From assembly GCA_020059745.1 (NCBI GenBank), contig JAGVBK010000003.1:68492-132491 (forward strand): DNA of 64,000 nt, in the 5' to 3' direction. The notes beneath the pieces were generated by a model, which worked only from the letters and a program-made list of their open reading frames with translations, did no database searches and was not told the DNA's origin. The DNA is from Candidatus Shapirobacteria bacterium (GTDB lineage Bacteria; Patescibacteriota; Microgenomatia; UM-FILTER-40-11). Both the position numbers and the translations under genes were made by a program. Shown here one piece after another: positions 28,170 to 63,572 of the stretch (the first letter of the stretch is position 1; every line of letters starts with the position of its first letter).

Positions 28170-28192
28170 TTTTATAATGGTATAAGAAAAAA

Positions 28193-43200: not shown

Positions 43201-43208
43201 GAAAAAAG

Positions 43209-44237: not shown

Positions 44238-44238
44238 C

Positions 44239-45237
44239 ATGAACTTTGTTGAGTATTACAAAGCAGCAAGAAAAGCAACGGCCAAGTTTATCTTTTGGGA
44301 ACTTTATTGGACGGTTAGATTTCTTTCTTTAAAAAAATTTTTAAATTTAATCTTAATTTTTTATCAGGATCATTTAAGACGGTCTTTTGAAGTAAGGGGA
44401 TTTCCGGTTAAATTGACTATTGATCCTACGGCTAACTGTAATCTTCACTGTCCGCTTTGTCCTACCGGCCAGGGCAATAAAGGGAGGAAAAAGGGGCTGA
44501 TGAAATTAACCGACTTTAAAAAAATTATTGACGAAACAGGGGATTTTCTTTTAGAAGTGGATCTTTTTAACTGGGGAGAGCCGCTTTTAAATAAAGAAGT
44601 GTTTAAAATGATAAGCTACACGCACAAAAAGAAAATAAAAGCCAGAATAAGTTCGAACTTAAACTTTTTTCCTTCTGGTTTTGAGAAAGAACTGGTTAAA
44701 AGCAAGCTTCATCATTTGGTAGTTTCACTTGACGGAATTTCCCAAGAAACATATTCTCAATACCGAGTAGGCGGATCATTGCCTAAAGTTTTAGATTCAG
44801 TTAAAAAAATTGCTCTTGAAAAAAAACGGCAAAGCTCCCCCTTTCCTTTCATAACCTGGCAGTTTATTGTCATGAAACATAACGAGCATGAAGTAAAGGA
44901 AGCTAAGAAATTGGTAAAGGAGTGGGGTTTTGACAGAATAGTTTTTCAGAGAAACCGGGGAGATATGGGTAAAGAGCTTTTTAAAAAGGCAAAAAAGCAG
45001 TTAAAAACCTGCCATTTTCTCTGGAATCAGTCTGTTATTAACTGGAACGGTTCTGTTTCTCCATGCTGTCTTTACTATGATGAGAAATATGATTTTGGCA
45101 ATGCTTTTAATGATGGTTTTGCCGAAGTTTGGAATAACCAAAGATACAAAGAAGCAAGAAGGCTAGTAACTGAAAAGAAATGCAATGATAAAAACTTGAT
45201 TTGTTGGAACTGTATTAAAAATGGTTTTCCTGATTGA
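44239..45237 (+). CDS. Radical SAM protein with a SPASM/twitch C-terminal domain.
   Basis: A CNLHCPLCP motif (CxxxCxxC) follows DPTANCN. The C-terminus has a cysteine cluster, PCCLYYDE...CWNC. Confidence 0.75.
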   Translation: MNFVEYYKAARKATAKFIFWELYWTVRFLSLKKFLNLILIFYQDHLRRSFEVRGFPVKLTIDPTANCNLHCPLCPTGQGNKGRKKGLMKLTDFKKIIDETGDFLLEVDLFNWGEPLLNKEVFKMISYTHKKKIKARISSNLNFFPSGFEKELVKSKLHHLVVSLDGISQETYSQYRVGGSLPKVLDSVKKIALEKKRQSSPFPFITWQFIVMKHNEHEVKEAKKLVKEWGFDRIVFQRNRGDMGKELFKKAKKQLKTCHFLWNQSVINWNGSVSPCCLYYDEKYDFGNAFNDGFAEVWNNQRYKEARRLVTEKKCNDKNLICWNCIKNGFPD

Positions 45238-45266
45238 TTAATGTTTATTAACAATGAATAAATAAT

Positions 45267-46298
45267 ATGAACAAAAAAAATCCGTTGGTTAGCGTACTCA
45301 TTGTTAATTACAATGGCGGAGCGGTTCTTGATTCCTGTCTTGCTTCACTTAAAAAGACCGATTATCCGAATTTTGAGACCATTGTTGTTGACAATGGTTC
45401 GACAGATGAAAGCATTAAAATGATAAAAAAGAAATACAAATGGGTTATTCTTTCGGAAGCAAAGAAAAATCTCGGTTTTGCTGCAGGTAATAATTTTGCT
45501 TATAAATCTTCCGGCGGTGAATATATAGCTTTGCTTAATGGGGATACTGAAGTTGAACCCGGCTGGTTAAGAAAGTTAGTTGAATTCGCCCAAAAACATA
45601 AGGACGGGGCAGCTTTTGCCGCTAAAGTGCTTTTTTTCGATGATAAAAAAACGCTCAATTCGGCTGGCGGGCTTTGTGATTGGTATGGTTTTTCTCCACT
45701 AAGAGGAACTTTTGAAAAAGACGAAGGCCAATATGACAGTCCTGACATGGTTTTTTATGCCCATGGAGCCGCAATGATGATTCGCCGTGAGACAATAGAA
45801 AAGATTGGTTTTTTTGATGAAGACTATTTTATTTACCATGAAGAGCTGGATTTTTGCTGGCGAGCATGGATTTTCGGTTACAAGGTTTATTATGTTCCCG
45901 GATCTGTTGTCTATCACAAGTTAAAGCAAAGAAATTTTTATGCCCCGGAAAAAAGAGCGCAAAGGCAGTTCTTGGTGAAAAAAAACAGGATTAGCACTCT
46001 TATTAAAAACCATAAAAGCCTTTCTCTTCTTACAGCCTCCCTTTTAGTAAATTTTATTGTTTCTCTTGGTGAAACCGTTTTTTATTTATCTAAAGGTGAC
46101 CTGCAAACAATTAAAGGTACTTTTATGGCATACTTTTGGAATGTTAAGCATTTTAGAAAAGACTGGAAAAAAAGAAAGAGAGTACAGAAACTGTATATGG
46201 CAGATGAGGTCTACATCTTGAAGAGAATGAAAAGATTTCCGGTGGCAATTGACATTTTTAAAGGTATAATTTCTGGGAAACTATCTCTCCCTTTATAA
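45267..46298 (+). CDS. Family 2 glycosyltransferase of the rhamnosyltransferase-like subgroup.
   Basis: Contains VSVLIVNYNGGAVL...VVDNGSTDES...NLGFAAGNN...LLNGDT. Confidence 0.8.
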   Translation: MNKKNPLVSVLIVNYNGGAVLDSCLASLKKTDYPNFETIVVDNGSTDESIKMIKKKYKWVILSEAKKNLGFAAGNNFAYKSSGGEYIALLNGDTEVEPGWLRKLVEFAQKHKDGAAFAAKVLFFDDKKTLNSAGGLCDWYGFSPLRGTFEKDEGQYDSPDMVFYAHGAAMMIRRETIEKIGFFDEDYFIYHEELDFCWRAWIFGYKVYYVPGSVVYHKLKQRNFYAPEKRAQRQFLVKKNRISTLIKNHKSLSLLTASLLVNFIVSLGETVFYLSKGDLQTIKGTFMAYFWNVKHFRKDWKKRKRVQKLYMADEVYILKRMKRFPVAIDIFKGIISGKLSLPL

Positions 46299-46302
46299 AA
46301 TT

Positions 46303-47811
46303 ATGAAAATATTGCTAGCTAATCCTAGTTGCAGAATTAAAATCGGACAGGACAAAGAGAGGTATTTTGTGCGGGCAGGGAGCAGGTGGCCTTTTTCTAC
46401 CGTTAAAAAGCGGAAACAGCCGCCTGAGTATATTCCTTTTCCTTTTTATCTTGCATATACTGCTGCTCTCTTAGAAAAAGAAGGACATGAAGTTATTGTT
46501 GATGACGGTGTGGCCACTAATCAGACAGAAAAAGAATTTTTAGACAATGTTTTAAAATCAAGTCTCAAGGTAATTCTTTTTGAGACCTCAACGCCGACCA
46601 TAAATTATGACTTAAGGCTGGTAAAAAGAATAAAAAAATTACTCCCCGATACTGTGGTTTGTCTTGCTGGTACTCATGCAACCACTTTTTTTAAAGAAAT
46701 TTTAATAGAAAGCAAGGGGGTTGATTTTGTTTTTCTTGGTGAATATGAGATAAATTTTTCTAAACTGGTTAATGCTTTGGATAAAAAGTGGAACCTCGAA
46801 AAAATCAAAGGCATTGCTTTTAAGAAAGATGGCAAAATATTTTTCTCGGAGCCGGAATTGGTTGAACCCCTTGATCAGCTTCCTTTTCCATCCCGCCATC
46901 TTTTTCCGAATAACAAAAACCCTGACCCAACCATTTATTGGGATGGGTTTTGCCAGAATAAACCTGCCATTCAAATGCATGCCTCAAGGGGGTGCCCTTT
47001 TCGGTGCAATTTCTGCCTTTGGAATCAAGTAATGTATCGGAACGGAAAGTACCGTTTTTTTTCAGCAAAAAGAGTAGCTGATGAAATGGAAGAAGTGATT
47101 AAAAAGTATAAGGCAAGGGAAATATATTTTGACGATGACACTTTTACGGCTAATAAAAAACAGGTGATTGAGGTGTGTAGGGAAATAAAAAAAAGGAAGT
47201 TAAAAGTAAGCTGGTCGGTAATGGGAGATGCTATGGTAACTGATAGGGAAATGATAGAGGCAATGGCAGATGCTGGTTGCATCGGTATGAAATTCGGAGT
47301 TGAAAGCGGAAACCTGAAGATCTTAAGACACATTGAAAAACCTGTTAATTTTGAAAAATTAAGAGAGTTCACGAACTGGTGCGCAAAAAGGAGGATAAAA
47401 ACCCATGCCACTTTTACTTTTGGCCTTTCCGGAGAAACAGGGGAGACAATGAGAGAAACAATGGAACTTGCCAAAAGCCTTGATGTGGATTCTGTCCAAT
47501 TTAGCATTACCACTCCATTTCCCGGAACAAGATACTATGAAGAAGTAAAAAGGAAAAAAATGCTTAAGGCTAAAAAATGGGCTGATTTTGATGGCTCTTC
47601 GGCCTCGATAGTAAAATTTGGAAAATTATCAAGTAAGGAAGTCGTTGAATTTTACAAAAGTGCTTCAAGGAGATGGCTTATTCATAAACTTACCAAGCCA
47701 AGATGGGTACAGAGACAATTTAAAAATCTGAATAGACTAAGGAAAGGGCAGGGGAGCGGTGTAATTTTTGAGAAAACCTTTAGGGTAATTGGGCTTCTGA
47801 AAGGACAATAA
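46303..47811 (+). CDS. Cobalamin-binding (class B) radical SAM enzyme.
   Basis: It has an N-terminal B12-binding-like domain, then ASRGCPFRCNFC (CxxxCxxC) and an elongated rSAM core. It is paralogous to the 55661 and 62058 genes. Confidence 0.75.
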   Translation: MKILLANPSCRIKIGQDKERYFVRAGSRWPFSTVKKRKQPPEYIPFPFYLAYTAALLEKEGHEVIVDDGVATNQTEKEFLDNVLKSSLKVILFETSTPTINYDLRLVKRIKKLLPDTVVCLAGTHATTFFKEILIESKGVDFVFLGEYEINFSKLVNALDKKWNLEKIKGIAFKKDGKIFFSEPELVEPLDQLPFPSRHLFPNNKNPDPTIYWDGFCQNKPAIQMHASRGCPFRCNFCLWNQVMYRNGKYRFFSAKRVADEMEEVIKKYKAREIYFDDDTFTANKKQVIEVCREIKKRKLKVSWSVMGDAMVTDREMIEAMADAGCIGMKFGVESGNLKILRHIEKPVNFEKLREFTNWCAKRRIKTHATFTFGLSGETGETMRETMELAKSLDVDSVQFSITTPFPGTRYYEEVKRKKMLKAKKWADFDGSSASIVKFGKLSSKEVVEFYKSASRRWLIHKLTKPRWVQRQFKNLNRLRKGQGSGVIFEKTFRVIGLLKGQ

Positions 47812-49004
47812 TGTTAAAGAAAAAGGAAAATAACTCTTTAAAAGCCGCGGTTTTGCTGGGCCAGTTAACGGTTCTTGGGGGGGTGGGAATAGCTGCCGTG
47901 AACGAAGTGAGAGAGCTTAGAAAGCTTGGCGTTGATGCCGAGCTGGTTATCCTTTTTAGAAAAAAGGAGTTTAATTCAATTAAGGACTATAATGCCGGCG
48001 ATGTTCCCATTGTTTTTCTTTCAGATTTTTTGCCTCGTTTTATGAGGTTAAATTTTAAGTTCCCCTTTTTCTCATTTTTTAGCTTTTTCCATATCGGCGC
48101 AATTTTTTGGGCGCCTTCTCTTATAAAAAAGCGTAACTATGAAGTAATTTTAGTTCATGAAACATACAACTGCTTTTCTGCCATTGCGGCCGCAAGGGCG
48201 AGCAAGGCTAAACTAATTAGTTACCTTTGGGACCCGGTTTCATATATTGTCCCCAGAATTTATGGTAAGAAGCTGCCAAAATTTTTCCTTCCGTTTTTAA
48301 AGGCGTTTACGATGTTTGTCGATAAACAAATTTACAAAAGAAGCGATGTTGTTCTGATCGGTTCAAATTTGCACAAAAATACATTTGAAACTTTTAGCCA
48401 AAAAAAGCCGTTAATAATTCTTCCGGCAGGGACGGAAATCCTGAAAAATCCGCCAAAAGTCAGAGACAGGGTTATTGTTTCTTTAACAAAATGGGATAGG
48501 GGAAAAAACCCGGAATTCATTTTACAAGTTGCTAAAAAGTTAGTTGGCGATTTTGTTTGGCTGATTGCCGGCAACTGGTCAGATCAGGATCAAAAAGAAG
48601 TATTTTTAAAAAAAATCAAAGAGATGAAGTTGGAGAAAAAAGTAAAGATAATCGGGAAAGTTACGGAGGAAGAAAAAAGAAAGCTATTTTCTCAGGCAAG
48701 GGTACTGGTTCACCCGATTGTGGAGGCTTTTGGCATGTTTGCTCTGGAGGCTGCCGGTTGCGGCTGCCCTTTTGTTATTCCCAAAAACTCCGGGGTTACC
48801 GAACTTTTTAAGGAGGAGAAACATGGCTATTTCCCTGGCGAGGGTAATACCGCTTCATTTGTTGAAAGAATTGAAGATCTTCTTAAAGATGAAAAAAAGA
48901 CTGGAGAAATGGGAAGAAAAGCTTGGGAACAAGCAAAGAAATATTCTTGGAAAGAGCATGCTTTAAAGCTTAAAAAAATATTTGAAAAAGCGATCCTGAA
49001 ATGA
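47811..49004 (+). CDS. Family 4 glycosyltransferase with a GT-B fold.
   Basis: The C-terminal region reads EAFGMFALEAAGCGCPFVIP. Confidence 0.7.
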   Translation: MLKKKENNSLKAAVLLGQLTVLGGVGIAAVNEVRELRKLGVDAELVILFRKKEFNSIKDYNAGDVPIVFLSDFLPRFMRLNFKFPFFSFFSFFHIGAIFWAPSLIKKRNYEVILVHETYNCFSAIAAARASKAKLISYLWDPVSYIVPRIYGKKLPKFFLPFLKAFTMFVDKQIYKRSDVVLIGSNLHKNTFETFSQKKPLIILPAGTEILKNPPKVRDRVIVSLTKWDRGKNPEFILQVAKKLVGDFVWLIAGNWSDQDQKEVFLKKIKEMKLEKKVKIIGKVTEEEKRKLFSQARVLVHPIVEAFGMFALEAAGCGCPFVIPKNSGVTELFKEEKHGYFPGEGNTASFVERIEDLLKDEKKTGEMGRKAWEQAKKYSWKEHALKLKKIFEKAILK

Positions 49005-49666
49005 GGGTAAAAAATAAAGAACAAACTTCTCAAATTGGTTATGACTCTTGGCATAAAACTCTCGGGTTTGGAGAAGAGAGGGAATATTATGAAATGCTGG
49101 GAGCTCTTCTAAAAGGAAGCAAATCAGTTGATATTGGCTGCGGGTCTGGTTTTATTGAGATTTATTCTCCAAATACTGTTGGTGTTGATTTTTCAAAAGA
49201 AGCATTAAAAATTGCAAAAAAGAACGGAGCAAAGCATTTGGTGCAAGCTTCGGCAGACAACCTTCCTTTTAAAGAAAATGAATTTGAAATTTCTTTAAGC
49301 AATGGAGTGCTTGAGCACTGCATTAATCAGGAGAAGGTAGTAGAGGAAATGGTCAGGGTTTCCAAAATTCAAATTATTATTGCCCATGCCAGGCTTCCTT
49401 ACGGTTTGGAACTTATAAGAAAACCTTTTATCGGACTTTTTGGATTAAAAGACCAGCCGGTTGAAAAACCGTTAACATTAAATCAAATTGAAAGAATGCT
49501 TCTTAAAAACAGCAGCCGTGTTTTGGTCAAGGGGATATGGAATTATGTTGACTTAAGGTGGGTTTGGAAAAAGATCCCTTATGGCATTGTGAAAATTCCT
49601 TCACATCATTTTATTATTGCCATTAAAACAAAACAATTAAATAGGAGGCTGCTTGGCAAAGAATAA
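49001..49666 (+). CDS. Class I SAM-dependent methyltransferase.
   Basis: Motif I reads VDIGCGSGF. There is an acidic DNLPF loop and then NGVLEH. Confidence 0.7.
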   Translation: MRVKNKEQTSQIGYDSWHKTLGFGEEREYYEMLGALLKGSKSVDIGCGSGFIEIYSPNTVGVDFSKEALKIAKKNGAKHLVQASADNLPFKENEFEISLSNGVLEHCINQEKVVEEMVRVSKIQIIIAHARLPYGLELIRKPFIGLFGLKDQPVEKPLTLNQIERMLLKNSSRVLVKGIWNYVDLRWVWKKIPYGIVKIPSHHFIIAIKTKQLNRRLLGKE

Positions 49667-50369
49667 AAACTTCAAGGAAAAACAAGCGGAGTACTTCGAC
49701 AAGCAATCTCAAAAAGCTAGAGATTTTGAAGAGACCAAGGCTTCAAGGTTTGAGTTTGACACGGTACTTTCTTTTATGGATTTGCCTCATGGCAGCGAAA
49801 TATTGGAACTTGGTTGTGGAGCAGGGAGATATTCTTTAAAGTTTTTACAAGCGGGCTATGATGTTTTGGGAGTTGATATTTCAACATCATCGCTAAGAAA
49901 ACTTCAGGATTTATATAACATCCAAAAAAAACCTGAGTGGGGGAGACTTAGAGTAAGCCAAAAGTTGCCAGAAGAAGGAAATTTTGACGCTTTAGTTTGT
50001 GTGAATATTCTTCACCATACGGAGGAGCCAAGGGAGATGTTGATAAAAGCAAAAAGATTGTTAAATAACAAGGGAAAGATTTTTATTTTTGAGCCCAACC
50101 CGTTTTGCCTTCCTTGGTATCTTTTGTTTTTATTTAAGGGGATTTTATCAATTGAAAAAAATATTGCCAAAACCGGAGTTTTAAATTTAAAAAGAATGCT
50201 CAAAGAGACTGGGTTTGTGAACATTCAGTCAAGGCCGTATGGTTTCATTCCTACCCGTTTAATTTGCTGGTCAGGGTGGCTTCTTAGGTTTAGTTCTGTT
50301 ACTTTGGCAAAAATTCCTCCGATTTGTTTTTTTTCTTTTCATAATATGGTTAAAGCGGAAATAAGCTAA
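49653..50369 (+). CDS. Class I SAM-dependent methyltransferase.
   Basis: Motif I reads ILELGCGAGRYS, and the DVLGVDIS and CVNILHH motifs follow. Confidence 0.75.
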   Translation: MAKNKNFKEKQAEYFDKQSQKARDFEETKASRFEFDTVLSFMDLPHGSEILELGCGAGRYSLKFLQAGYDVLGVDISTSSLRKLQDLYNIQKKPEWGRLRVSQKLPEEGNFDALVCVNILHHTEEPREMLIKAKRLLNNKGKIFIFEPNPFCLPWYLLFLFKGILSIEKNIAKTGVLNLKRMLKETGFVNIQSRPYGFIPTRLICWSGWLLRFSSVTLAKIPPICFFSFHNMVKAEIS

Positions 50370-51494
50370 ATGTTTAAGAAAGCATTATTTATTCTTAAAA
50401 ATAATCCTTCATATTTTTTCCCTTTAATAGCCGGTTTATTGAGAAGAATTGTTTTGGTGAAAACATTTAGCCGTTTCCTTTACCCCGAGCTTATTACAAT
50501 CACGGTTACCAACCGCTGTAATTTTAATTGCCCGGGTTGCTCTTCGAACTCACCCTTATATACTCGTAAAAATGGCAAAGTTAAAGAAGTCAGCCTCAAA
50601 GATATTAAAAAAGTTATTGATGAAGTGGCCGTTTTTAAACCTTTTATATATTTAAACGGTGGCGAGCCGACTTTAAGAGATGACTTAGTTGAGATAATAA
50701 AATATGTTAAAAGCAAAAAATTAGTTTGCTCTTTTACTACAAACGGAAGCCTATTAACTCCGGATTTGTTAGAGAAATTAGTAAAAGCCAAACTTGATTT
50801 TCTGTCGGTTTCAATTGACGGGCCAAAAGAGTTCCACGACAAAATTCGTGGCTTTAAAGGTGCTTTTGATAGAGCGGTTTCCGGTTTGGAAAGCTTGAGA
50901 CTGCTAAAAAATAAATACAAAGTTTCTTATCCACATGTAAGACTGGCCTCAATTATTTATCCTGAGAATATTAATAATTCAAAATATATTATTAATTTGG
51001 CCAATAATCTTAAGGTGAATGAGTTGGGTTTTGGTTTTCTTATGTATTATCCAGAAAAAATAATTGGGATGCAGAAAAAGTTTGTTGAAAAAAACAAAAC
51101 AGGCGGAGAAGAACCGATTGGTTTAAAGATTGACAACAATTACAGATTTAACTTTGACGAAAAGAAATACCTAAATTTTTTGGCTTATCTAAAGAAGAGC
51201 AAAATTCCATACTTCTTTGCATATCAAGGCAATCAATATAAAGAGTATTTTGACCCCGGCGTCTTTCCGAGTAATAAATCAGTTTGTTTGACACCTTGGA
51301 ACAATTTACTTATTCATCCTAACGGAGATTTAGGTGTTTGTCAGGGATTTAGGTTTGGCAGTATTTATAAAAGCAGCATTCTTAAGCAATGGAATAGTGA
51401 GGAAATGGTCAGGTTTAGGAAAAAAAGAGCCCAGGGGCCTTTTCCTGTCTGTTTCAGGTGTAATGAGGGCCAAAAAATTAAATTCGATAAATGA
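50370..51494 (+). CDS. Radical SAM protein with a SPASM/twitch C-terminal domain.
   Basis: Contains TNRCNFNCPGC (CxxxCxxC). The C-terminal cysteines are CLTPW...CQGF...CFRC. Confidence 0.75.
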   Translation: MFKKALFILKNNPSYFFPLIAGLLRRIVLVKTFSRFLYPELITITVTNRCNFNCPGCSSNSPLYTRKNGKVKEVSLKDIKKVIDEVAVFKPFIYLNGGEPTLRDDLVEIIKYVKSKKLVCSFTTNGSLLTPDLLEKLVKAKLDFLSVSIDGPKEFHDKIRGFKGAFDRAVSGLESLRLLKNKYKVSYPHVRLASIIYPENINNSKYIINLANNLKVNELGFGFLMYYPEKIIGMQKKFVEKNKTGGEEPIGLKIDNNYRFNFDEKKYLNFLAYLKKSKIPYFFAYQGNQYKEYFDPGVFPSNKSVCLTPWNNLLIHPNGDLGVCQGFRFGSIYKSSILKQWNSEEMVRFRKKRAQGPFPVCFRCNEGQKIKFDK

Positions 51495-52678: not shown

Positions 52679-52693
52679 TGCTACAATTGATTA

Positions 52694-55360: not shown

Positions 55361-55364
55361 GAAA

Positions 55365-55664: not shown

Positions 55665-57145
55665 AGATAGTTATTGGTTATCCGCCGCTTAAGTCAGAGA
55701 AAGGTATTCCTCAGATTTCTCAAAATCGCCAATTCCAATGGACAGCAGGCGGTCCGCTTTCTTATTTTATTTACCCGGTTATCCCCGCTTATGCAGCCAG
55801 TTTATTAAAAGAAAGAGGTTATGAAGTTTACTGGCTTGATGGTTTGGCCGAGAAAATGACTTACGAGCAGTGGGAAAAGAAACTGCTGGAAATTAAACCT
55901 GATATTTTAGCCATTGAAACAAAAACTCCGGTTATCAAATACCACTGGCAAATCATTAAACAACTTAAAAAACTGGTCACTGATCACTGGTCACTGGTTA
56001 CTGTCTTGATGGGCGATCATGTTACTGCCTTGCCAGAAGAATCATTTTCAAAATGTCCTGTCGACTATATTTTAACCGGCGGTGATTATGATTTTGGCCT
56101 TCTTTCCATTGCTAATCATTTAAGCAAAGGCGAGAAGTTAGATTCTGGCATATATTACCGCACCAAAAACGATGATTCGAAGTTCATGGTTCATGGTTCA
56201 AAGTTCAAGTTAAATCATAGTCTTGACGAGTTGCCCCTAATTGATCGGGATTTAACAAAGTGGCACCTCTATGCTTACAGAAATTCGAATTTTTACCGCG
56301 CTCCCGGAGCCTACACAATGTTTGGTCGGGATTGCTGGTGGGGAAAATGTTCATTTTGTTCCTGGACAACTCTTTTTCCCGGAGAAAAATTCAGAGTAAT
56401 GAGCGTTAAACAGGCGATTGCTGAAGTGAAGAATTTGGTTGAAAACTATCATGTTAAGGAAATAATGGACGATTCGGGCACTTTTCCGACCGGCGATTGG
56501 TTAAGGGAATTTTGTGAAGAAATTATTAAAAGAGGATACCAGAAAAAAATTAATATTAACTGCAATATGCGGTTTAACTGCGGGCTTTCACAAAAAGATT
56601 ATAACTTGATGGGGAAAGCGGGTTTCAGGTTTATTCTTTATGGTCTTGAATCGGCGAACCAGGAAACACTTGACAAGCTTAATAAAAATCTCAAGGTTGA
56701 GCAAATAGAGCCGGCCCTTAGCGCGGCAAAAAAGGCTGGGCTCAAGCCCCATGTAACCGTAATGGTCGGCTACCCGTGGGAAGGAGAAAAAGAAATTCAA
56801 AAAACAGTCTCTTTTGTCAAAAATCTTTTTGAAAAAGAGTTGGTTGATACAATGCAGGCCACAGTAGTAATTCCTTACCCCGGAACTCCTCTTTTTGAGG
56901 AATGTAAAAAGAAAAAACTTCTTAAAACTTTGGACTGGAATAGGTATGACATGAGAGAGCCCATTATGAAGGCTGGGGTTTCCGATGAAAAGCTAATGTG
57001 TGCCGTCAGGGAGCTATATAGCAGTTCCGTTTGGAATAAGACCTTTGTATTTAATACACTTAAGAAATTAGGAAACTATGATGGTTTTAAGTATGTTTCT
57101 TTTCAGGGATTTAAGTATTTAGGAAAACTTTTAGAATTCAAGTGA
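55661..57145 (+). CDS. Cobalamin-binding (class B) radical SAM enzyme.
   Basis: It has an N-terminal B12-binding-like domain, then FGRDCWWGKCSFC (CxxxCxxC). It carries two heptamer-repeat patches, at 55974-56001 and 56183-56210, inside the CDS. Confidence 0.75.
   Translation: MKIVIGYPPLKSEKGIPQISQNRQFQWTAGGPLSYFIYPVIPAYAASLLKERGYEVYWLDGLAEKMTYEQWEKKLLEIKPDILAIETKTPVIKYHWQIIKQLKKLVTDHWSLVTVLMGDHVTALPEESFSKCPVDYILTGGDYDFGLLSIANHLSKGEKLDSGIYYRTKNDDSKFMVHGSKFKLNHSLDELPLIDRDLTKWHLYAYRNSNFYRAPGAYTMFGRDCWWGKCSFCSWTTLFPGEKFRVMSVKQAIAEVKNLVENYHVKEIMDDSGTFPTGDWLREFCEEIIKRGYQKKININCNMRFNCGLSQKDYNLMGKAGFRFILYGLESANQETLDKLNKNLKVEQIEPALSAAKKAGLKPHVTVMVGYPWEGEKEIQKTVSFVKNLFEKELVDTMQATVVIPYPGTPLFEECKKKKLLKTLDWNRYDMREPIMKAGVSDEKLMCAVRELYSSSVWNKTFVFNTLKKLGNYDGFKYVSFQGFKYLGKLLEFK
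55974..56001. repeat. Heptamer tandem repeat TG(G/A)T(C/T)AC with 4 units, inside a cobalamin radical-SAM CDS.
   Basis: TGGTCAC TGATCAC TGGTCAC TGGTTAC. It encodes VTDHWSLVT, which is absent from the paralog at 46303. Confidence 0.6.
56183..56210. repeat. Heptamer tandem repeat GTTCA(T/A)(G/A) with 4 units, inside a cobalamin radical-SAM CDS.
   Basis: GTTCATG GTTCATG GTTCAAA GTTCAAG. It belongs to the same family as the arrays flanking the IVS gene. Confidence 0.6.
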
Positions 57146-57154
57146 TCTCATTTT

Positions 57155-57628
57155 ATGAAATTTTTAAATTTAATCAATAAAAACTTGTTTTTCCATGAGC
57201 TTACCCATTTCATCTTGAGTTTGTTGTCTGGATTATTTGTATGGCTAATATTCAGAGACTGGAGACTTTTGCCAGTTGCCATTTTATTTGGATTTTTTAT
57301 TGATGTGGATCACCTATTTGATTATTTGAATTGGTCAAGGGGAAGTCTTAAACTCTCCGAGTTTTTTACCCCCCGGCTTTATGTCAGGGGATCAAAAAAG
57401 GTTTTCGTTCCCCTTCATGGTTGGGAATTTTTACCGTTTGTCTGGATTTTTGGGAGAATAATTGGTTTAAAAATCGGAATTTCCGGATTTCAATGGGCTG
57501 CTTCTTTGGCCTATTTTACCCACATGTCTTGGGATCAAATTACAGTCAACCCCAACACACTTGGATATTTCTTTATCTATCGCTTGATAAATAATTTTAA
57601 AATGAAAAGCTTTAATGGAAAAAAATAG
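57155..57628 (+). CDS. Small integral membrane protein, possibly a YdjM/DUF457-like membrane-bound metal-dependent hydrolase.
   Basis: 157 aa with 3-4 TM helices. There are conserved His/Asp positions (HELTHF...DVDHLFD). Confidence 0.35.
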   Translation: MKFLNLINKNLFFHELTHFILSLLSGLFVWLIFRDWRLLPVAILFGFFIDVDHLFDYLNWSRGSLKLSEFFTPRLYVRGSKKVFVPLHGWEFLPFVWIFGRIIGLKIGISGFQWAASLAYFTHMSWDQITVNPNTLGYFFIYRLINNFKMKSFNGKK

Positions 57629-58640
57629 CCTACCAACAATTTCGGTGTTGATTCCAACTTTAAATGCCGGCAGGGTACTCGAGGAATGTCTTAAATCGAT
57701 TTCAATTCAGGATTATCCCAAAGACAAAATTGAGATAATTATTGCTGACGGCGGATCTGTCGATAATACTCTAAAGATTGCAAAGAAATATGGTGCAAAA
57801 ATCTTCGAAAACCCCCTCAAGACTGGAGAAACGGGAAAGGCTGTGGCATTAAAAAACGCAAAAAACGAACTTGTTGCCCTAATTGACTCTGATAATATCT
57901 TACCAAACAAAGACTGGCTTAAAAGGATGGTTGAGCCTTTTGACGACAGAGAAATTAATGGTAGTGAGCCTTGGGCTTTTACTTACAGAAAGTTTGATGG
58001 TTTTATCGACCGGTACTGTGCCTTGATGGGCATGAACGATCCCTTTTGCTATTTTATCGGCAACTACGACCATTTAAATCTGATTACTAATAAGTGGACA
58101 AAATTAAACTTAGAAGAAGAAGACAAGGGCAGTTGGCTTAAGCTAAGCTTGAAGTTTCCGAATGTTCCTACAATTGGCGCTAATGGAGCATTATTTAGAA
58201 GGAAATTTCTTATAGAAGGAGGAGTAACTAAGGATTACTTATTTGATATTGATGTGATTCCCAAACTTTCCAGGAGAAGGGCGATTAAATATGCGAAAGT
58301 TAAAATTAGTATAGTTCATGTTTCCTGCGGAAGCAGCTCAGTAAGATTTACTTTAAAACAATTGAGGAGAATTACCGATTATTTATATTATCAAAAACGC
58401 AATCTTAGGATTTATCCTTGGCAGAAACAAGACAAGACAGGCCTGATTAATTTTTTACTAAGTTGTATTTTTGTATTTCCCTTATTATATCAATCACTAA
58501 GAGGGTATATGAAAAAACCAGACCCAGCTTGGCTTTTTCATCCGCTTGCTTGCTGGATAACGCTTTTTGTCTATACGACAAAGGTGCTGTCTGGGTTTGT
58601 AACAACAAACATCCAAAGTAGGGAAAAATGGAAACAATGA
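57615..58640 (+). CDS. Family 2 glycosyltransferase.
   Basis: Contains ISVLIPTLNAGRVLEECL...IIADGGSVDNT...DSDN (DxD). It is a tandem paralog of the 58751 gene. Confidence 0.7.
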   Translation: MEKNSLPTISVLIPTLNAGRVLEECLKSISIQDYPKDKIEIIIADGGSVDNTLKIAKKYGAKIFENPLKTGETGKAVALKNAKNELVALIDSDNILPNKDWLKRMVEPFDDREINGSEPWAFTYRKFDGFIDRYCALMGMNDPFCYFIGNYDHLNLITNKWTKLNLEEEDKGSWLKLSLKFPNVPTIGANGALFRRKFLIEGGVTKDYLFDIDVIPKLSRRRAIKYAKVKISIVHVSCGSSSVRFTLKQLRRITDYLYYQKRNLRIYPWQKQDKTGLINFLLSCIFVFPLLYQSLRGYMKKPDPAWLFHPLACWITLFVYTTKVLSGFVTTNIQSREKWKQ

Positions 58641-58750
58641 TTTACTCTGATAAAAATTCGTAGATTTTTTTTGAGAGTAAATTGTGCTAATATTTATGCT
58701 AGTTTTCTTACCAGAAAAGAGATAGTAACAATTATTAATTAAATATTTAA

Positions 58751-59797
58751 ATGCCTAAAAAATCTTCAAACAAAAAACAGACTCTTCCCTCTGTTTCTTT
58801 TGTTATTGCCACATATAATAGCGGTTGGTGTGTTGAAGACGCTTTGAAATCCATTAAGAAGCAGGACTATTCTAAAAATAAAGTTGAAATAATTTTTGCC
58901 GACGGCGGGTCAAAAGATAATACTTTAGAGCTGGCTAAAAAATACGGTGTTAAGGTTCTAAAAAACGAATTCAAACTAGGCGAACCGGGTTTTGCTTTGG
59001 GATGTGAAGAAGCAAATGGCGATCTTGTTGTTTTTTTGGGCCACGACAATCAGCTTGTTCAGGATAACTGGATTCAGTTAATGATCAAGCCTTTTATGGA
59101 AGCTGATGTTACCGTTGCTTTCCCGCATATTGAAAACAGGCCCCAGGATAGTTGGTTGACAAAATATGTAAACCGCTTTACTGACCCATTTAATCATTTT
59201 GTTTATGGCTACGCCAATAATCCTTTAACCTTTGATAAGGTTTATAGAGTAATTAAGAGAACTAAACACTGGATAATCTTTGATTTTGATCTTCAAGACC
59301 ATCCTATTTTAGCTTTTGATCAGGGCTTGATGCTGAAGAAAGAAGGTTTCCATCGTGATAAAGAAACGTGGTACTGTGATATTCTGCCGATTTTGGACTT
59401 GATAAAAGAAGGAAAGAAATTTGCCTATGTACCGTTGGCAAGCAACTACCATGTTACCTTAAATAAAGGTGTAAGGCAATTTATAAAGAAGCATCAATGG
59501 GCAATTGATTATAATTTAAGTCCTAAAAAAACATTCGGTATTTTTAAACAACCGTTTGGTCTTAAAGCAAGAAAGCAGTATATTTCTCTGAAGAGAAAGA
59601 TGCGAATGTTGGCTTATCCTTTTTATGGGATTAGTTTTTTTATTCCGATACTTAGAGCCGGTTACATGTTTTTAAAAGACAGGGAGAGAGAGTGGTTTTA
59701 TCATCCCTTTATTACATTTATTTCTGCTTATATTATATGGAAAGAAGCGGTCAGAGTGCTTGTTTTTAAGAGAGATCCATTAACAGAAAGATATTAA
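58751..59797 (+). CDS. Family 2 glycosyltransferase; paralog of the 57615 gene.
   Basis: Contains VSFVIATYNSGWCVEDAL...IIFADGGSKDNT. It has the same domain order and its own 110-nt AT-rich upstream spacer. Confidence 0.7.
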   Translation: MPKKSSNKKQTLPSVSFVIATYNSGWCVEDALKSIKKQDYSKNKVEIIFADGGSKDNTLELAKKYGVKVLKNEFKLGEPGFALGCEEANGDLVVFLGHDNQLVQDNWIQLMIKPFMEADVTVAFPHIENRPQDSWLTKYVNRFTDPFNHFVYGYANNPLTFDKVYRVIKRTKHWIIFDFDLQDHPILAFDQGLMLKKEGFHRDKETWYCDILPILDLIKEGKKFAYVPLASNYHVTLNKGVRQFIKKHQWAIDYNLSPKKTFGIFKQPFGLKARKQYISLKRKMRMLAYPFYGISFFIPILRAGYMFLKDREREWFYHPFITFISAYIIWKEAVRVLVFKRDPLTERY

Positions 59798-59815
59798 TTA
59801 CTAAAAAGGAGTTAT

Positions 59816-60229
59816 ATGAACTACAAGCTTATTTCAAAAGATAAATTTATCGACCAAAGAGGAAGTTTGGCAGAATTTTTAACCAGAAGCGAATTGGAAG
59901 AAGGTTTTCCCTTTGGTCACATATACTTTGTCACTTTTGAGAAAAAAGGGGTTATTAGGGGCAATCACTATCATGCTAAGAAGGACGAATATTTTGGTTT
60001 GGCTATGGGTAAAGTTGAAATTACAATCGAGGATATTAAAACCAAAGAAAGAAAATCTTTCATTCTTGATTCCGAGGAGGATAAGTTCACAAGACTTCAG
60101 ATTGGACCTAACACCGCCCACGCAGTTGAAAGCTTATCTGATAAAGCAGTTCTGATTGACTATTTTCCTGAGCCGTACAATAAAGAGGATCCGGACTCAA
60201 TTAGCTATGAAGTAGTAAAAAAAGAATGA
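59816..60229 (+). CDS. WxcM-domain / FdtA-like cupin, a putative dTDP-4-keto-6-deoxyhexose 3,4-ketoisomerase.
   Basis: 137 aa. Contains [10 protein letters not shown] and a HYH-containing cupin core ([22 protein letters not shown]). Good SD sequence (AAAGGAG) upstream. Confidence 0.65.
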
Positions 60230-61335
60230 ATGTGAGTTTTATTGATTTTAAAAGAGAATATCTAGAAATAAAAGAGGAGATAGATAACGCTGTAAATAAG
60301 GTTTTAGAGAGCGGTTGGTTTGTTTTGGGTAAAGAAGTTGAAGCTTTCGAAAAGGAATTTGCATCTTATTGCGGAGTTAACTATTGTTATGGCGTGAATT
60401 CCGGTACAGATGCTCTCTATTTATCTCTACGGGCTTTAGGTTTAAACCCAAAGGATGAAGTTATAATTCCGGTAAATACCTTTATTGCTTCAGCTTTAGC
60501 AGTCAGCCAGCTTGGAGCGATTCCTGTTTTTGTAGATGTGGACGAAAAAACTGGGAACATTGATCCGGCTAAAATTGAAAAAAAGATAGGTTATGCGACC
60601 AAGGCGATTATGGCTGTTCATCTTTATGGTCAAATTGCCGACATGAAAGAAATTCTTACGCTGGCAAAGAGACATCAGCTTTTAGTGATTGAAGATGCTT
60701 GCCAAGCTCACGGGGCAACTTATGAAGGTAAAAAAGCTGGTGGTTTTGGTGATATTGCGGCTTTTTCCTTTTATCCAACAAAAAATTTGGGTGCTTATGG
60801 TGATGCCGGTGCAGTTGTTACGAAAAATGATCAGTTGGCCGAGAAAATTAAACTTTTGAGAAATTATGGACAAAAAGAAAAGTATTATCATGAAATAAAA
60901 GGGGTTAACAGCCGAATGGACGAACTTCAAGCGGCAATTTTGAGGGTGAAGCTTCGATATCTTGATGCGTGGGTAAAAAAAAGAAGGGAAATCGTAGCTC
61001 GGTATAATCGGCAGCTAGCTGATTTACCTCTCACCTTACCAAAAGAAAAAGAAAACCGCTTCCACTCTTATTATCTTTATGTTATAAGAACCGCTGAAAG
61101 AGATGCCTTAATGGGATATATGAAAGAAAAAGGAATTGGAGCCTTGATTCATTATCCAGCCCCCCTTCACCTGCAAAGGGCTTATCGAGAATTGAAATAT
61201 AAGGATGGAGATTTTCCTCTCGCAGAAAAATTTTGCAAAGAGATTATTTCTTTACCTTTGTATCCACAAATCAAAGAAGAAGAAGTAGACTATGTTTGTC
61301 AGAGCATAAGGAGTTTTTTTAATGAAAAAATTTAA
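60226..61335 (+). CDS. PLP-dependent sugar aminotransferase of the DegT/DnrJ/EryC1/StrS family.
   Basis: Contains [24 protein letters not shown] and [19 protein letters not shown], the last of which holds the lysine-containing active-site region. Confidence 0.85.
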
Positions 61336-61996
61336 TTCGGGTATTGGGGAAAGACTTACCGGTAGGCATAAATATAGTTTTAAATTTTGTGGAAACGTAA
61401 AAGGTAAAACAATTCTTGATGTCGGGAGTTCTTATGGTTGGTTTGAAAAATTTGCCGTCGAAGCGGAGTGTAAATCTGTTTTAGGAATCGAACCAGAGGA
61501 AAATTTATTTTACGCAGCCCAGAAAGAAGTACCCAAAGCTATTTTTAAAAAAGGATCTGCTTTAAAAATTCCAGCAAAGGATAACTTTTTTGATTTGGTT
61601 GTTATGTTTGATGTTATCGAGCACATTCCCCGTAAAACTGAATCAAAAGCACTAAAAGAAATTAAAAGGGTTTTAAGGCCTGGTGGAACATTTGCTATGT
61701 CCACTTCACTGAACTTTTGGTTTACTAACATCATGGACCCCATATGGTATTTTGGACACCGCCATTACAACGAAAAGCAATTAAGAAATTTACTGGGTAA
61801 AGAAGGTTTTAAAGTGAAAAAGGTTGAGTATCGGGGTGGTTGGGGTGAAATGGCTAGCGCAATTTTACTTTATCCTTTTAAATGGATTTTTCATTGTGAA
61901 GTTCCTTTTAAAAAATATCTGGAACAAAAAAGAGATGAAGAATATTTGGTTAATAAAAAAGGATTCATGACAATTTATCTGAAGGCAACAAAATGA
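61322..61996 (+). CDS. Class I SAM-dependent methyltransferase.
   Basis: Contains [24 protein letters not shown] and LRPGGTF. Confidence 0.7.
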
Positions 61997-62057
61997 ATTT
62001 ATCTATTAATTTGTTTTGTTAGTTTCTGTTATTAGATTAGTACTGAAAGGAAGCAAA

Positions 62058-63572
62058 ATGAAAGTATTATTGTTAAACCCGTATCGAACGACAACTTTCA
62101 ATCGGAGAACTTATCCCTTGGAACCAATTGGTTTGCTCTATTTAGCTACATATATTCGCGAAAAGCTTTCAAAAAAATATCCATCGATAAAAGTTAGTAT
62201 TGTTGATACTTATTTTAATGGTCCTCCAGCTTGCACTAAAACCAAGCTAGGTTATAGAGCGGGGTTGAGCGACGAAGAAATTGAGGAAATTCTAAAAAAA
62301 GAGAAACCCGACATGATTGGGATAAGCAACAATTATACCTCATACACACCCGACAGTCTGTCGTTGGCTGAGTTGGCAAAGAAAACATGCCCTAAGGCGG
62401 TAATAGTACTTGGAGGTGCTCATGCCACAGTGGATCACGAATTTTTAATTACTAAGGATTGTGTTGATGTTGTTGTGAGAGGAGAGGGGGAGGAGACCTT
62501 CAGAGAAATGATTTACAACATTTATAAGAAAAAAGGATTGAGGAACGTATTGGGAATTACTTATAAAGAAGGTAAAAGAATTATTTCTAATTCAGACAGA
62601 CCTTTAATTGAAGATTTAGATGAGTTGCCTATTCCTGACAGGTCCTTTATTAATTATCCGGAATATCTCAAAAAGACTTCCGAAATATACTTTGTGCCTG
62701 AAAAGAAGCCTGTAGGAACAATTTTTTCTTCCAGAGGCTGTATGTACCATTGCGTTTTTTGTAGTACCCATAAAGTATGGTCGGATAAATGGCGGTATCG
62801 GTCTGCCAAGAATGTCATAAAAGAGATTAACTATCTTAGGAAGAAGTATGGGGTCCGAGAGTTTGCCTTTGAGGATGATCAGTTTTTGGGAAGTAATGAA
62901 AGGGTTGTTGAAATATGCAAAATGATTATCAAACAAAAGATGGATATCTCTCTTATTGTACCTCCAGGACTATCCCCATCATTGTTAAAGAAAGAAACCT
63001 TGAAATATTTAAAGCAGGCGGGTCTTTATAGGGTATCTTTTTCGGTTGACGCCGGGAGTCCGAAATCAGTTGCATATGTCAAAAAACCGGTTAATTTAGA
63101 CAAAGTTAGAGACATTGTTGCTTATGCTAACCGTTTGGGATTATGGACTTATGGGTTTTTTGTAATCGGGTATCCCTATGAGACTATTAAAGATCTTGAA
63201 GAGGTTAGGGATTACGCTTATGGATTGAAAATGGATTTTATTAGATTTTATATTGCTCAACCCCACATGGGATCTGACCTTTATGAAATATATTTAAAGG
63301 AGGGAAAGATTGATAAACGGGCAAAAGAACAACACACTATGTTCGATTCTCTATTCGGAACAGATCATGTTTCCGCCAAAAAACTGTTTAGATTAAGAGA
63401 AGAATATGAGAACAGTTATCTCTTATATCATATAAAGAACCATTTACCTTCACTAAAGTATTTTTTTTGGGAGTTTATTCCTAAAATTTCCAGTCCCAAA
63501 AAGATTTTTTATCTATTTAGAGTAATGGTTTCTTACACTAAACAGATATCCATAACCCCATCTAAAAAGTAA
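62058..63572 (+). CDS. Cobalamin-binding (class B) radical SAM enzyme.
   Basis: It has an N-terminal B12-binding-like domain, then SSRGCMYHCVFC (CxxxCxxC). I prefer the ATG at 62058, which has an AAGGAAG SD sequence, over the ORF-track start at 62016. Confidence 0.75.
   Translation: MKVLLLNPYRTTTFNRRTYPLEPIGLLYLATYIREKLSKKYPSIKVSIVDTYFNGPPACTKTKLGYRAGLSDEEIEEILKKEKPDMIGISNNYTSYTPDSLSLAELAKKTCPKAVIVLGGAHATVDHEFLITKDCVDVVVRGEGEETFREMIYNIYKKKGLRNVLGITYKEGKRIISNSDRPLIEDLDELPIPDRSFINYPEYLKKTSEIYFVPEKKPVGTIFSSRGCMYHCVFCSTHKVWSDKWRYRSAKNVIKEINYLRKKYGVREFAFEDDQFLGSNERVVEICKMIIKQKMDISLIVPPGLSPSLLKKETLKYLKQAGLYRVSFSVDAGSPKSVAYVKKPVNLDKVRDIVAYANRLGLWTYGFFVIGYPYETIKDLEEVRDYAYGLKMDFIRFYIAQPHMGSDLYEIYLKEGKIDKRAKEQHTMFDSLFGTDHVSAKKLFRLREEYENSYLLYHIKNHLPSLKYFFWEFIPKISSPKKIFYLFRVMVSYTKQISITPSKK

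Follow-up and report, generated by a model that had tools for sequence, protein, structure and literature searches.

What do five radical S-adenosylmethionine (SAM) enzymes do in a bacterial glycosylation locus? The question is raised by a 64-kb stretch of DNA from a Candidatus Shapirobacteria bacterium (contig JAGVBK010000003.1, positions 68,492 to 132,491; this whole stretch is called the window below), in which a block at 43158-63572 interleaves radical-SAM genes with genes for glycosyltransferases, methyltransferases and amino-sugar enzymes. The locus is best read as a genuine and coherent, so far uncharacterised cassette for sugar tailoring by radical-SAM enzymes, and a recurring theme rather than a singular oddity. 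We put the probability that these enzymes use radical chemistry in the cytoplasm to tailor sugar precursors, destined for a variable envelope or protein glycan, at roughly 65%. The radical-SAM genes are integral to the glycan locus: they are coupled to their neighbours and are found in the same glycan context in relatives, and their nearest characterised relatives (BtrN, BlsE, DesII, AprD4, HpnJ, OxsB and GenD1) mostly act on sugars.

A translationally coupled block of radical-SAM and sugar genes

The window has a G+C content of about 0.37, and all of its genes but one lie on the forward strand. Open reading frame (ORF) calls and Pfam searches revealed that the block consists of 20 same-strand, densely packed genes holding five intact radical-SAM genes, three class I methyltransferases, a sugar epimerase/dehydratase of the short-chain dehydrogenase/reductase (SDR) type, an FdtA-like protein, a DegT aminotransferase and glycosyltransferases of the GT2, GT4 and GT-C types. 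Each gene named in an initial annotation of this DNA was recovered as an intact ORF with a domain call backed by Pfam. The four class I methyltransferases counted there (49001, 49653, 61322 and 15216) were confirmed and joined by a fifth at 5782-6360, and the described interleaving of SDR, FdtA-like and DegT genes with GT2 (45267, 57615 and 58751) and GT4 genes (47811 and 51491) was likewise found with Pfam. The gathering scores used were 29.5 bits for PF04055, 32.1 for PF02310 and 23 for PF05523, and membership in curated families was judged by NCBIfam cut-offs. The genes of the block and the gene preceding it are listed below, with TW1, TW2, B12a, B12b and B12c as our names for the five radical-SAM proteins.

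41245-43104, reverse strand: membrane protein with tetratricopeptide repeats (TPR; Pfam matches at residues 470-614) and ~6 transmembrane (TM) helices; the only minus-strand gene
43158-44237, forward strand: NAD-dependent SDR sugar epimerase/dehydratase (PF01370, 162.8 bits), at the start of the variable insert
44239-45237, forward strand: TW1, radical-SAM enzyme with a predicted twitch-type C-terminal domain (Pfam Radical_SAM and SPASM)
45267-46298, forward strand: GT2 (PF00535, 98.5 bits)
46303-47811, forward strand: B12a, radical-SAM enzyme of apparent class-B architecture (B12-binding 49.6 bits, Radical_SAM 81.1 bits)
47811-49004, forward strand: GT4 (PF00534, 96.3 bits), its start overlapping the B12a stop (spacing -1)
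49001-49666, forward strand: class I SAM methyltransferase (PF08241, 60.6 bits)
49653-50369, forward strand: class I SAM methyltransferase (PF08242, 61.2 bits)
50370-51494, forward strand: TW2, second predicted twitch-type radical-SAM enzyme (Pfam Radical_SAM and SPASM)
51491-52678, forward strand: GT4 of the TW2-GT4-GT-C trio (PF00534, 101 bits; synteny)
52694-55360, forward strand: large AftD-like GT-C membrane glycosyltransferase (PF11847, 70.6 bits; 8 TM segments)
55365-55664, forward strand: 99-aa membrane protein with three TM segments (ORF listing and TM scan)
55661-57145, forward strand: B12b, radical-SAM enzyme with CX4CX2C (Radical_SAM; B12-binding 23.6 bits, sub-threshold)
57155-57628, forward strand: 157-aa membrane protein, orf157 (no Pfam or NCBIfam match)
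57615-58640, forward strand: GT2 (PF00535; 51% identical orthologue in the related locus L003)
58751-59797, forward strand: GT2 (PF00535, 76.5 bits)
59816-60229, forward strand: FdtA-like cupin of the NDP-4-keto-6-deoxyhexose 3,4-ketoisomerase type (NDP, nucleoside diphosphate; PF05523, 39.9 bits)
60226-61335, forward strand: DegT/DnrJ/EryC1 pyridoxal phosphate-dependent sugar aminotransferase (PF01041, 454.8 bits)
61322-61996, forward strand: class I SAM methyltransferase (PF08241, 65.1 bits)
62016/62058-63572, forward strand: B12c, candidate class B radical-SAM enzyme (PF02310 73.9 bits, PF04055 74.3 bits)

Successive genes from the SDR gene to B12c are separated by 1, 29, 4, -1, -4, -14, 0, -4, 15, 4, -4, 9, -14, 110, 18, -4, -14 and 61 bp, that is, by -14 to +29 bp everywhere except at two gaps of 61 and 110 bp. 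Since these spacers are mostly overlapping or near zero, 43158-63572 is a translationally coupled array. A scan for promoter-like and terminator-like sites found background levels only and was uninformative. All five radical-SAM genes of the window fall within these 20 genes and none within the other ~36 scanned, a clustering with a chance of C(20,5)/C(56,5) = 0.004. Pairwise identity within the class-B-type trio (B12a, B12b and B12c) is just 23-32%, and TW1 and TW2 are distant kin only; this low mutual identity suggests that the five proteins represent five different families and not recent duplicates. A TM scan found all five to be without membrane segments and hence soluble.

Two predicted twitch-type enzymes

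All five proteins match PF04055 above its gathering score (39.6-89.2 bits). The motif CX3CX2C is present in 44239, 46303, 50370 and 62058, and 55661 has CX4CX2C. SPASM domains, as in anSME, PqqE, AlbA and MftC, have the pattern CX9-15GX4C...CX2CX5CX3C...C and two auxiliary 4Fe-4S clusters, and twitch domains of the BtrN and MoaA type are a truncated SPASM fold with a single auxiliary cluster, CX9-15GX4C and a distal Cys pair. TW1 has CX3CX2C at residues 67-74 and C258-X12-G-X4-C276...C322-X2-C325 further on; in TW2, CX3CX2C at 50-57 is followed by C306-X12-G-X4-C324...C361-X2-C364. The triad and the four auxiliary Cys are invariant in alignments of 46 TW1 homologues (43-76% identity) and 24 TW2 homologues (35-79% identity), and a motif search found the CX2CX5CX3C of the seven-Cys SPASM motif in neither protein. 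These patterns, with only four invariant C-terminal Cys and no CX2CX5CX3C, point to a twitch arrangement with one predicted auxiliary 4Fe-4S cluster in place of a full SPASM domain. The initial annotation had called both proteins radical-SAM/SPASM enzymes; the Pfam SPASM call is indeed made, but the domains behind it look like four-Cys domains of the twitch type. The argument that SPASM implies peptide-like chemistry then fails, as there is a single auxiliary site and the best solved match of TW1 is BtrN, a sugar/aminocyclitol dehydrogenase.

In searches of PDB sequences, TW1 matched the BtrN twitch domain best (E = 6e-9) and TW2 the tetraether synthase GDGT-MAS (7tol; E = 5e-14). Foldseek with an AlphaFold2 model of TW1 (pLDDT, the predicted local distance difference test score, 93.3) also placed BtrN first (E = 1.4e-11), with BlsE, SuiB, anSME and DesII close behind, and in this model the N-terminal extension of TW1 forms a pair of helices. 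No Pfam domain beyond Radical_SAM, SPASM and Fer4_12 was found in TW1 or TW2. Their best NCBIfam match is the tungsten-cofactor maturase, at 110 bits for TW1 and 116 bits for TW2 against a cut-off of 380. Maturases of peptides that are ribosomally synthesised and modified post-translationally (RiPPs) reach at best 29-92 bits against cut-offs of 265-850, i.e. 3- to 10-fold below, and the anSME family is not among the 25 best NCBIfam matches listed for TW1 or TW2. Pfam scans found no sulfatase gene in the window. It had been allowed at the outset that the two proteins might turn out to be anSME or known RiPP maturases; no such cut-off was reached. We rejected an anSME identity on the sub-threshold family scores, the single auxiliary site and the lack of a sulfatase in the window, and a full SPASM or RiPP-maturase reading on the conserved Cys pattern, the sub-threshold scores and the lack of space for a precursor. 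The TW1 and TW2 products have 100% matches on record (Candidatus Microgenomates bacterium, locus tag C4578_02685), which places the organism among the Patescibacteria.

Three class-B-like enzymes and the cobalamin question

None of the five radical-SAM proteins reaches a curated NCBIfam cut-off, which argues that they are not anSME, PqqE, AlbA, HpnJ or AprD4. Against HpnJ (TIGR03471, cut-off 577.6) B12a scores 266.4 bits over its full length, B12b 147.7 and the third class-B-like protein 169.9, and against the AprD4 family (NF033070, cut-off 500) the three score 90.9, 37.2 and 63 bits. The best NCBIfam match of B12c is Sden_1168 (185 bits, cut-off 575), and AprD4 is the best PDB sequence match of all three. 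PF02310 is matched above its gathering score by 46303 (49.6 bits) and 62058 (73.9 bits) and below it by 55661 (23.6 bits).

The tail of cobalamin is contacted by a Gly-Gly motif on beta4 and a Gly-Glu motif at alpha5 (PMC9204698). B12c shows both: its LGGAHAT and RGEGEE line up with the corresponding GG and GE stretches in TokK, CysS and OxsB. B12a has LAGTHAT and LG-EYE, and the family pattern, (A/G)(G/F) on beta4 with (G/A/S)-EYE, is partial. Both motifs are missing from the B12b family, whose sequences at these sites read xGDH and GGDYDF and offer no Glu. We therefore rejected the proposal of the initial annotation that all three proteins bind cobalamin: the motifs speak for it in B12c, which has both, and partly in B12a, but not in the AprD4-like B12b, which lacks the contacting residues and matches PF02310 below threshold. 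Judging from these motifs, B12c is the best candidate for a cobalamin-dependent (C-)methylase and the use of cobalamin by B12b is doubtful. B12a, of class-B architecture, is related to HpnJ by its family score without being an HpnJ orthologue.

The CX4CX2C of B12b comprises C225, C230 and C233 and lies within RDCWWGKCxFCSW, which is invariant in 23 homologues. We considered it as a new cluster motif and rejected this, as CX4CX2C is already documented in the nucleoside/sugar enzymes OxsB and GenD1. A model of B12b (pLDDT 79.9) has a Rossmann-like N-terminal domain, and its top Foldseek match is AprD4 (TM-score 0.69/0.74), ahead of MgmA/QCMT, TsrM and OxsB. AprD4 catalyses the dehydration of a sugar 1,2-diol together with a reductase, AprD3 (PMC5461906), and it has a Rossmann-like domain yet binds no cobalamin (PMC12931638). 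The missing GG and GE motifs of B12b fit its resemblance to this cobalamin-free enzyme. The B12b family is large, with roughly 6,500 homologues, and unusually well conserved: B12b is 57-84% identical to members of its best 120 homologue clusters, mostly from Patescibacteria, and B12a has orthologues with 55-60% identity in the related loci L081 and L082. In the sequence records, the best match of the B12b product is 84% identical and B12c read from the ATG at 62058 is absent; public annotation may use other start codons for B12b and B12c, or may have missed these genes.

Conservation of gene order in related loci

We compared gene order around B12b in a non-systematic sample of nine loci (L076, L077, L078, L079, L080, L081, L083, L084 and L003) and saw backbone synteny in all of them. 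In L076/L077, L078, L079 and L080 there is a common backbone of a flippase, two GT2 genes, the TPR membrane protein on the minus strand and B12b. The window keeps the same order over 38173...43104 and resumes it at 55661, so that the intervening 12.5 kb (43158-55660) constitute a variable cassette, or an insertion, that separates the TPR gene from B12b. The TPR protein itself keeps its position and orientation in L076, L077, L078, L079 and L080 and may be a TPR-bearing GT-C-type transferase. We tried and rejected PMT_2 for its N-terminal 460 aa, which have no Pfam match, and found just a weak PMT_2 match in the L079 orthologue. Directly upstream of B12b, L084 and L003 have a GT2 gene, and L083 has a 1022-aa protein between GT2 and B12b. 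Downstream, L083 continues with orf157, GT2, FdtA, an unassigned ORF, a hexapeptide acyltransferase, DegT and GT4, and later with one radical-SAM/SPASM and one B12-radical-SAM gene. This run parallels 55661-63572 of the window except that methyltransferase 61322 stands where L083 has the acyltransferase. An orthologue of GT2 57615 is found in L003, and L083 also has a GT2 after B12b and orf157.

The other radical-SAM genes have recurring neighbours as well. TW2 belongs to a small family of ~31 close homologues, all from the candidate phyla radiation (CPR), and the trio of TW2, GT4 and large GT-C is kept in L081 and in L082 from Moranbacteria, i.e. from Microgenomates to Moranbacteria. L081 has four B12-radical-SAM genes and TW2 within 17 kb, and its contig probably carries a TW1 homologue too. 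B12a adjoining a GT4 gene also recurs in relatives. Within ±10 kb of the query, radical-SAM genes number one in L076, three in L078, two each in L079 and L080, five in L081, two in L082, four in L083 and two in L084. Multi-radical-SAM glycan loci are the rule among the related CPR loci sampled. The initial annotation had suspected an unusual and uncharacterised route; uncharacterised it is, but unusual only in a relative sense, as such loci are common in the sampled relatives and also occur in Brachyspira.

TW1 has more than 1,000 homologues. In a phmmer map of ±6 kb in 73 species-level genomes, the closest of them lie mostly amid SDR, GT2, GT4, methyltransferase, GT-C and B12-radical-SAM genes, and the hosts of this near clade include DPANN archaea, Nitrospinota, Methylomirabilota and Scalindua, among others. 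In many loci an SDR gene adjoins or lies near the TW1 homologue.

Several further observations concern these loci. In L009, L012, L013 and L014 (Bathyarchaeota metagenome-assembled genomes (MAGs) and one Actinomycetota MAG) we found an adjacent pair of twitch radical-SAM genes, one TW1-like and the other closest to TW2, with no recognisable glycan genes within 6 kb. L003 (DNJG01000164.1; G+C 0.365) is labelled Nitrospinota UBA9963 and has a CPR-like gene set: a GT2 (46% identical to 40220), B12b (53%), a GT2 (51% to 57615), a TW1-like protein (49%) and a 1471-aa AftD-like GT-C. Either the module was transferred laterally or the contig has been binned wrongly. Genes for AbiEii-type toxins lie just downstream of B12b/orf157 at L078:15758-16498, L081:17440-18210 and L084:12720-13460, and not in the window, which hints at a recombination or insertion hotspot at this junction.

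Partner genes of the radical-SAM enzymes

The FdtA-like and DegT genes are adjacent and overlapping, and methyltransferase 61322 follows next. A pathway of the Fdt/Qdt type to an NDP-3-amino-3,6-dideoxyhexose takes a 3,4-ketoisomerase, an aminotransferase such as FdtB/DegT and an enzyme that modifies the nitrogen, and depends on a nucleotidyltransferase and a 4,6-dehydratase for its supply. We tried 61322 as a sugar N,N-dimethyltransferase of the TylM1/DesVI type and rejected this, since no such PDB match was found and the best match is LahSB; N-methylation by 61322 would be a guess. The SDR at 43158 scores 126.6 bits against GalE and 113 bits against RmlB (cut-off 365), both sub-threshold in NCBIfam, and is not assignable as a 4,6-dehydratase.

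The seeming 300-bp gap at 55361-55660 is filled by the 99-aa ORF with three TM segments, which is just too short for the customary 100-aa cut-off and overlaps the start of B12b by 4 nt. Its product is 39% identical (E = 6e-20) to that of L081:14952-15272, in the same position between GT-C and B12b, and is not a precursor-like peptide. The block has no free intergenic space of more than 110 bp for a precursor-peptide gene, and its small ORFs are conserved hydrophobic TM proteins. The earlier remark that no small precursor-peptide ORF lies nearby is therefore borne out, as there is no intergenic room for one.

The second small membrane protein, orf157, has orthologues beside or near B12b in L084 (L084:11643-12113; 42% identity), L080 (L080:12881-13339; 38%), L083 (L083:11458-11931; 30%) and L081 (L081:18224-18676; 26%). 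In L083 and L084 the gene comes right after B12b; in L080 and L081 it is found less than 2 kb downstream. The protein has conserved His/Asp-rich motifs (...DVDHLFDY...HGWE...H...W/FDQ) and could be a partner or substrate-handling subunit of B12b.

Proposed sugar chemistry and alternative explanations

Radical-SAM chemistry requires SAM and a low-potential reductant, and for this reason the five enzymes are likely to be cytoplasmic. Their substrates would be nucleotide-activated (NDP-) or polyprenyl-linked sugars before flipping or export, and assembly would be completed on the outer side of the membrane by the numerous GT-C enzymes. Repeated units of a radical-SAM and a glycosyltransferase gene, with or without a methyltransferase, suggest one modified sugar per unit, with each radical-SAM enzyme supplying or modifying a sugar for the neighbouring transferase. 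TW1 and TW2 might perform BtrN-like C-H abstraction on sugars, leading to oxidation to a ketone, epimerisation or dehydration. Together with the adjacent SDR, TW1 could carry out oxidation and then reduction, for a net epimerisation or deoxygenation that would parallel AprD4/AprD3 (PMC5461906). B12b might resemble AprD4, OxsB or GenD1 in its action and rearrange, dehydrate or methylate a sugar, either without cobalamin or in an atypical manner. B12c could perform cobalamin-dependent methylation of a 3-amino-3,6-dideoxyhexose made by FdtA and DegT with the methyltransferase, and B12a an HpnJ-like rearrangement or methylation of a glycoside. Taken together, these activities would give a glycan that varies between strains and abounds in sugars that are methylated, deoxy or altered at carbon in some other way. 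These specific proposals are drawn by analogy and individually held with low confidence. The initial annotation had suggested radical chemistry on a glycan or glycoprotein; coupling and synteny do assign the radical-SAM enzymes to the glycosylation locus, but a finished glycoprotein is a less likely substrate than cytoplasmic sugar precursors.

Several points weigh against tailoring of sugar precursors. The window contains neither a nucleotidyltransferase of the RmlA type nor a clear 4,6-dehydratase to feed FdtA and DegT. We tried GT2 40220 and 45267 as polyprenyl-phosphate sugar synthases and rejected this, as PDB sequence searches gave no match to GtrB or DPMS. The chemistry of all five families is assigned by analogy, at 13-30% identity, Foldseek hardly separates sugar enzymes (BtrN, BlsE and DesII) from peptide enzymes (SuiB and anSME) for TW1, and B12c would require cobalamin import by a CPR cell. 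Finally, a more distant TW1 clade in Cloacimonadota adjoins Lon protease and not glycan genes (L025-L059, where Lon is among the TW1-flanking genes with 10 of the 126 neighbours in an immediate-neighbour Pfam census that is noisy from crude ORF picking, so that the ±6 kb phmmer map is more informative). Therefore the TW1 family as a whole is not glycan-specific; the association holds for the near clade, and the Cloacimonadota clade probably has a different function in the same twitch family.

The lipid part of the pathway offers another possible target. The polyprenyl-phosphate carrier, a glycolipid anchor or membrane lipids might be methylated, cross-linked or cyclised, much as by the radical-SAM enzymes of hopanoid, ladderane and tetraether synthesis. 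The curated matches of B12a and B12b do include HpnJ, HpnR and a "lipid biosynthesis B12-binding/radical SAM protein", GDGT-MAS is the best PDB match of TW2, whose NCBIfam matches also list Tes and HpnH, and GT-C enzymes, whose donors are lipid-linked, abound in the locus. However, those matches are far below threshold and mainly reflect the common radical-SAM core, the enzymes have no membrane segments, and the genes conserved alongside them encode SDR, DegT, FdtA, methyltransferases and soluble glycosyltransferases and are not isoprenoid or fatty-acid genes. HpnJ itself has been proposed to act on a sugar and not on a lipid (PMC9204698). We regard a lipid target as unlikely.

Maturation of a peptide or protein, either a RiPP with its precursor elsewhere or the target protein of glycosylation, with the glycosyltransferases decorating the product, seems to us improbable. 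It would account for the Pfam SPASM call on TW1 and TW2, the many weak NCBIfam matches to RiPP maturases (WgkB, the mycofactocin enzyme MftC, PqqE and ApyD) and the presence of SuiB and anSME among the top fold matches of TW1, and the TPR membrane protein of the backbone could bind a protein substrate. Yet the maturase scores lie 3- to 10-fold under the cut-offs, there is one auxiliary site as against two in anSME and most RiPP SPASM enzymes, and TW1 has no extra Pfam domain, its N-terminal extension being two helices in the model. In addition, intergenic stretches are 110 bp long at most, the only small ORFs encode conserved hydrophobic membrane proteins, and no protease, transporter or leader-peptide gene occurs in this or the related loci. 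It is more improbable still that the radical-SAM genes share no function and are housekeeping or selfish passengers of a recombination-prone glycan island. The region from the TPR gene to B12b does vary between relatives, and AbiEii genes are inserted nearby in L078, L081 and L084, but overlapping stop and start codons tie the radical-SAM genes to glycosyltransferase and methyltransferase genes, the combinations TW2-GT4-GT-C, B12b-orf157-GT2 and B12a-GT4 recur across phylum-level distances, and five of five radical-SAM genes fall in 20 of 56 genes (p ~0.004).

Within sugar tailoring, which we continue to prefer, we offer a bolder idea only tentatively. The B12b family could be a core envelope-glycosylation enzyme throughout Patescibacteria, an AprD4-like and cobalamin-independent CX4CX2C enzyme with orf157 as its partner and a reaction new to surface glycans, for example radical deoxygenation or ring rearrangement of a sugar linked to a nucleotide or a lipid. 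The four accessory families (two twitch, two class B) would add C-methyl, keto/epimer or carbocyclic sugars, and CPR bacteria would then make their envelope glycans by reactions that are so far documented only for antibiotics and hopanoids.

Glycosylation machinery in the rest of the window

Pfam searches of the window outside the block revealed glycosylation machinery throughout. The window holds two Wzx-type flippases, about 12 GT2, five GT4, two YfhO and five class I methyltransferase genes, and its GT-C proteins also include GT87-, ALG3- and PIG-V-like members. At 18760-34758 there are about eight tandem GT-C paralogues of the PMT_2 type, ~550 aa each and 25-37% identical to one another, with small GT2, ALG3-like and unassigned ORFs between them, a striking expansion for a small CPR genome. 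Two adjacent 800-aa GT-C proteins of the YfhO family are encoded at 10395-15207. A gene for a 23S rRNA intervening-sequence protein (four-helix bundle, PF05635) lies within the locus at 34797-35171, adjoining a GT2-GT4-PIG-V-like segment, and is also present in L084 (5513-5857).

Implications and comparison with known systems

What is understood of radical-SAM sugar tailoring comes, to our knowledge, almost entirely from antibiotic pathways (BtrN, DesII, AprD4, GenK/GenD1 and BlsE) and from hopanoids (HpnJ). Radical-SAM enzymes recur in surface-glycan loci of CPR bacteria, DPANN archaea and Brachyspira hyodysenteriae, a pathogen of pigs. The genomes of CPR bacteria are tiny and their way of life is attachment to a host. 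The outlay of more than 64 kb on one glycosylation locus, with five radical enzymes, suggests that surface-glycan diversity is of great importance to the bacterium studied here, for attachment, phage evasion or host recognition. The handles gained are the conserved 55661 family with its defined motif, the conserved partners and cultivable carriers (B. hyodysenteriae and Eleftheria terrae). In the literature collection searched, no paper links CPR, radical SAM and glycosylation.

Among characterised enzymes, BtrN (the 2-deoxy-scyllo-inosamine dehydrogenase of butirosin synthesis, PDB 4M7T) shares with TW1 and TW2 the CX3CX2C core, the CX12GX4C...CX2C arrangement and a carbohydrate-pathway setting. 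Identity is ~17%, however, TW1 and TW2 exceed BtrN by 80-130 residues and begin with an additional helical region, and BtrN belongs to an aminoglycoside cluster whereas they belong to an envelope-glycan locus. AprD4 of apramycin synthesis (PDB 6FD2) resembles the class-B-like enzymes in its two-domain layout, a Rossmann-like domain with a radical-SAM barrel. It acts on a sugar, and NAD(P)-dependent SDR genes lie near the radical-SAM genes here as AprD3 accompanies AprD4 (PMC5461906). It differs in the sub-threshold family score, with the likeness confined to the fold, in the CX4CX2C of B12b, in the cobalamin motifs kept by B12c, for which a cobalamin-free enzyme would have no use, and in the lack of aminoglycoside genes here.

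For HpnJ, which acts in cyclitol-ether formation on hopanoids, a ring contraction has been proposed, with a glucosamine glycoside that a GT2 has attached as the substrate (PMC9204698). It is the best curated match of B12a and B12b, and sets of deacetylase, glycosyltransferase and radical-SAM genes stand beside B12a/B12b homologues in E. terrae and L080. In E. terrae the order is a PIG-L deacetylase, an oxidoreductase, a WecB/TagA glycosyltransferase, the B12a homologue (41% identity, full length), a second B12 protein, an SDR and two GT4 genes. Unlike a true HpnJ, B12a scores less than half of the cut-off, and neither the window nor L076-L084 contain hopanoid genes (hpnH/I/K or squalene-hopene cyclase). 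The cobalamin-dependent sugar C-methyltransferases GenK, GenD1 and Fms7 and the ring-contracting OxsB are class B radical-SAM enzymes with amino sugars or nucleosides as substrates; two of them, OxsB and GenD1, share the CX4CX2C of B12b, and B12c aligns with OxsB, CysS and TokK and directly follows the amino-sugar module of FdtA, DegT and methyltransferase. This similarity is remote (E = 1e-5 to 1e-7) and without curated membership, and the target here would be an envelope glycan and not an antibiotic.

A parallel in layout comes from plasmid pBHWA1 of B. hyodysenteriae, whose rfb/lipooligosaccharide locus has seven radical-SAM genes in ~13 kb, a block that tracks with virulence and is functionally uncharacterised (PMC4267127). 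Its radical-SAM proteins are 27-28% identical to TW1 over ~81% of the TW1 length, and six of the seven have CX3CX2C, CX9-15GX4C and a C-terminal CxxC in a twitch-like pattern. Although it is plasmid-borne in a member of the Spirochaetota, has rhamnose and CDP-hexose sugar genes and lacks class-B-type radical-SAM enzymes, the pBHWA1 block, like that of the window, interleaves multiple radical-SAM genes with sugar genes (rfbF, rfbC, an SDR, glycosyltransferases, rhamnan-synthesis genes and a GDP-mannose dehydratase), and does so even more densely.

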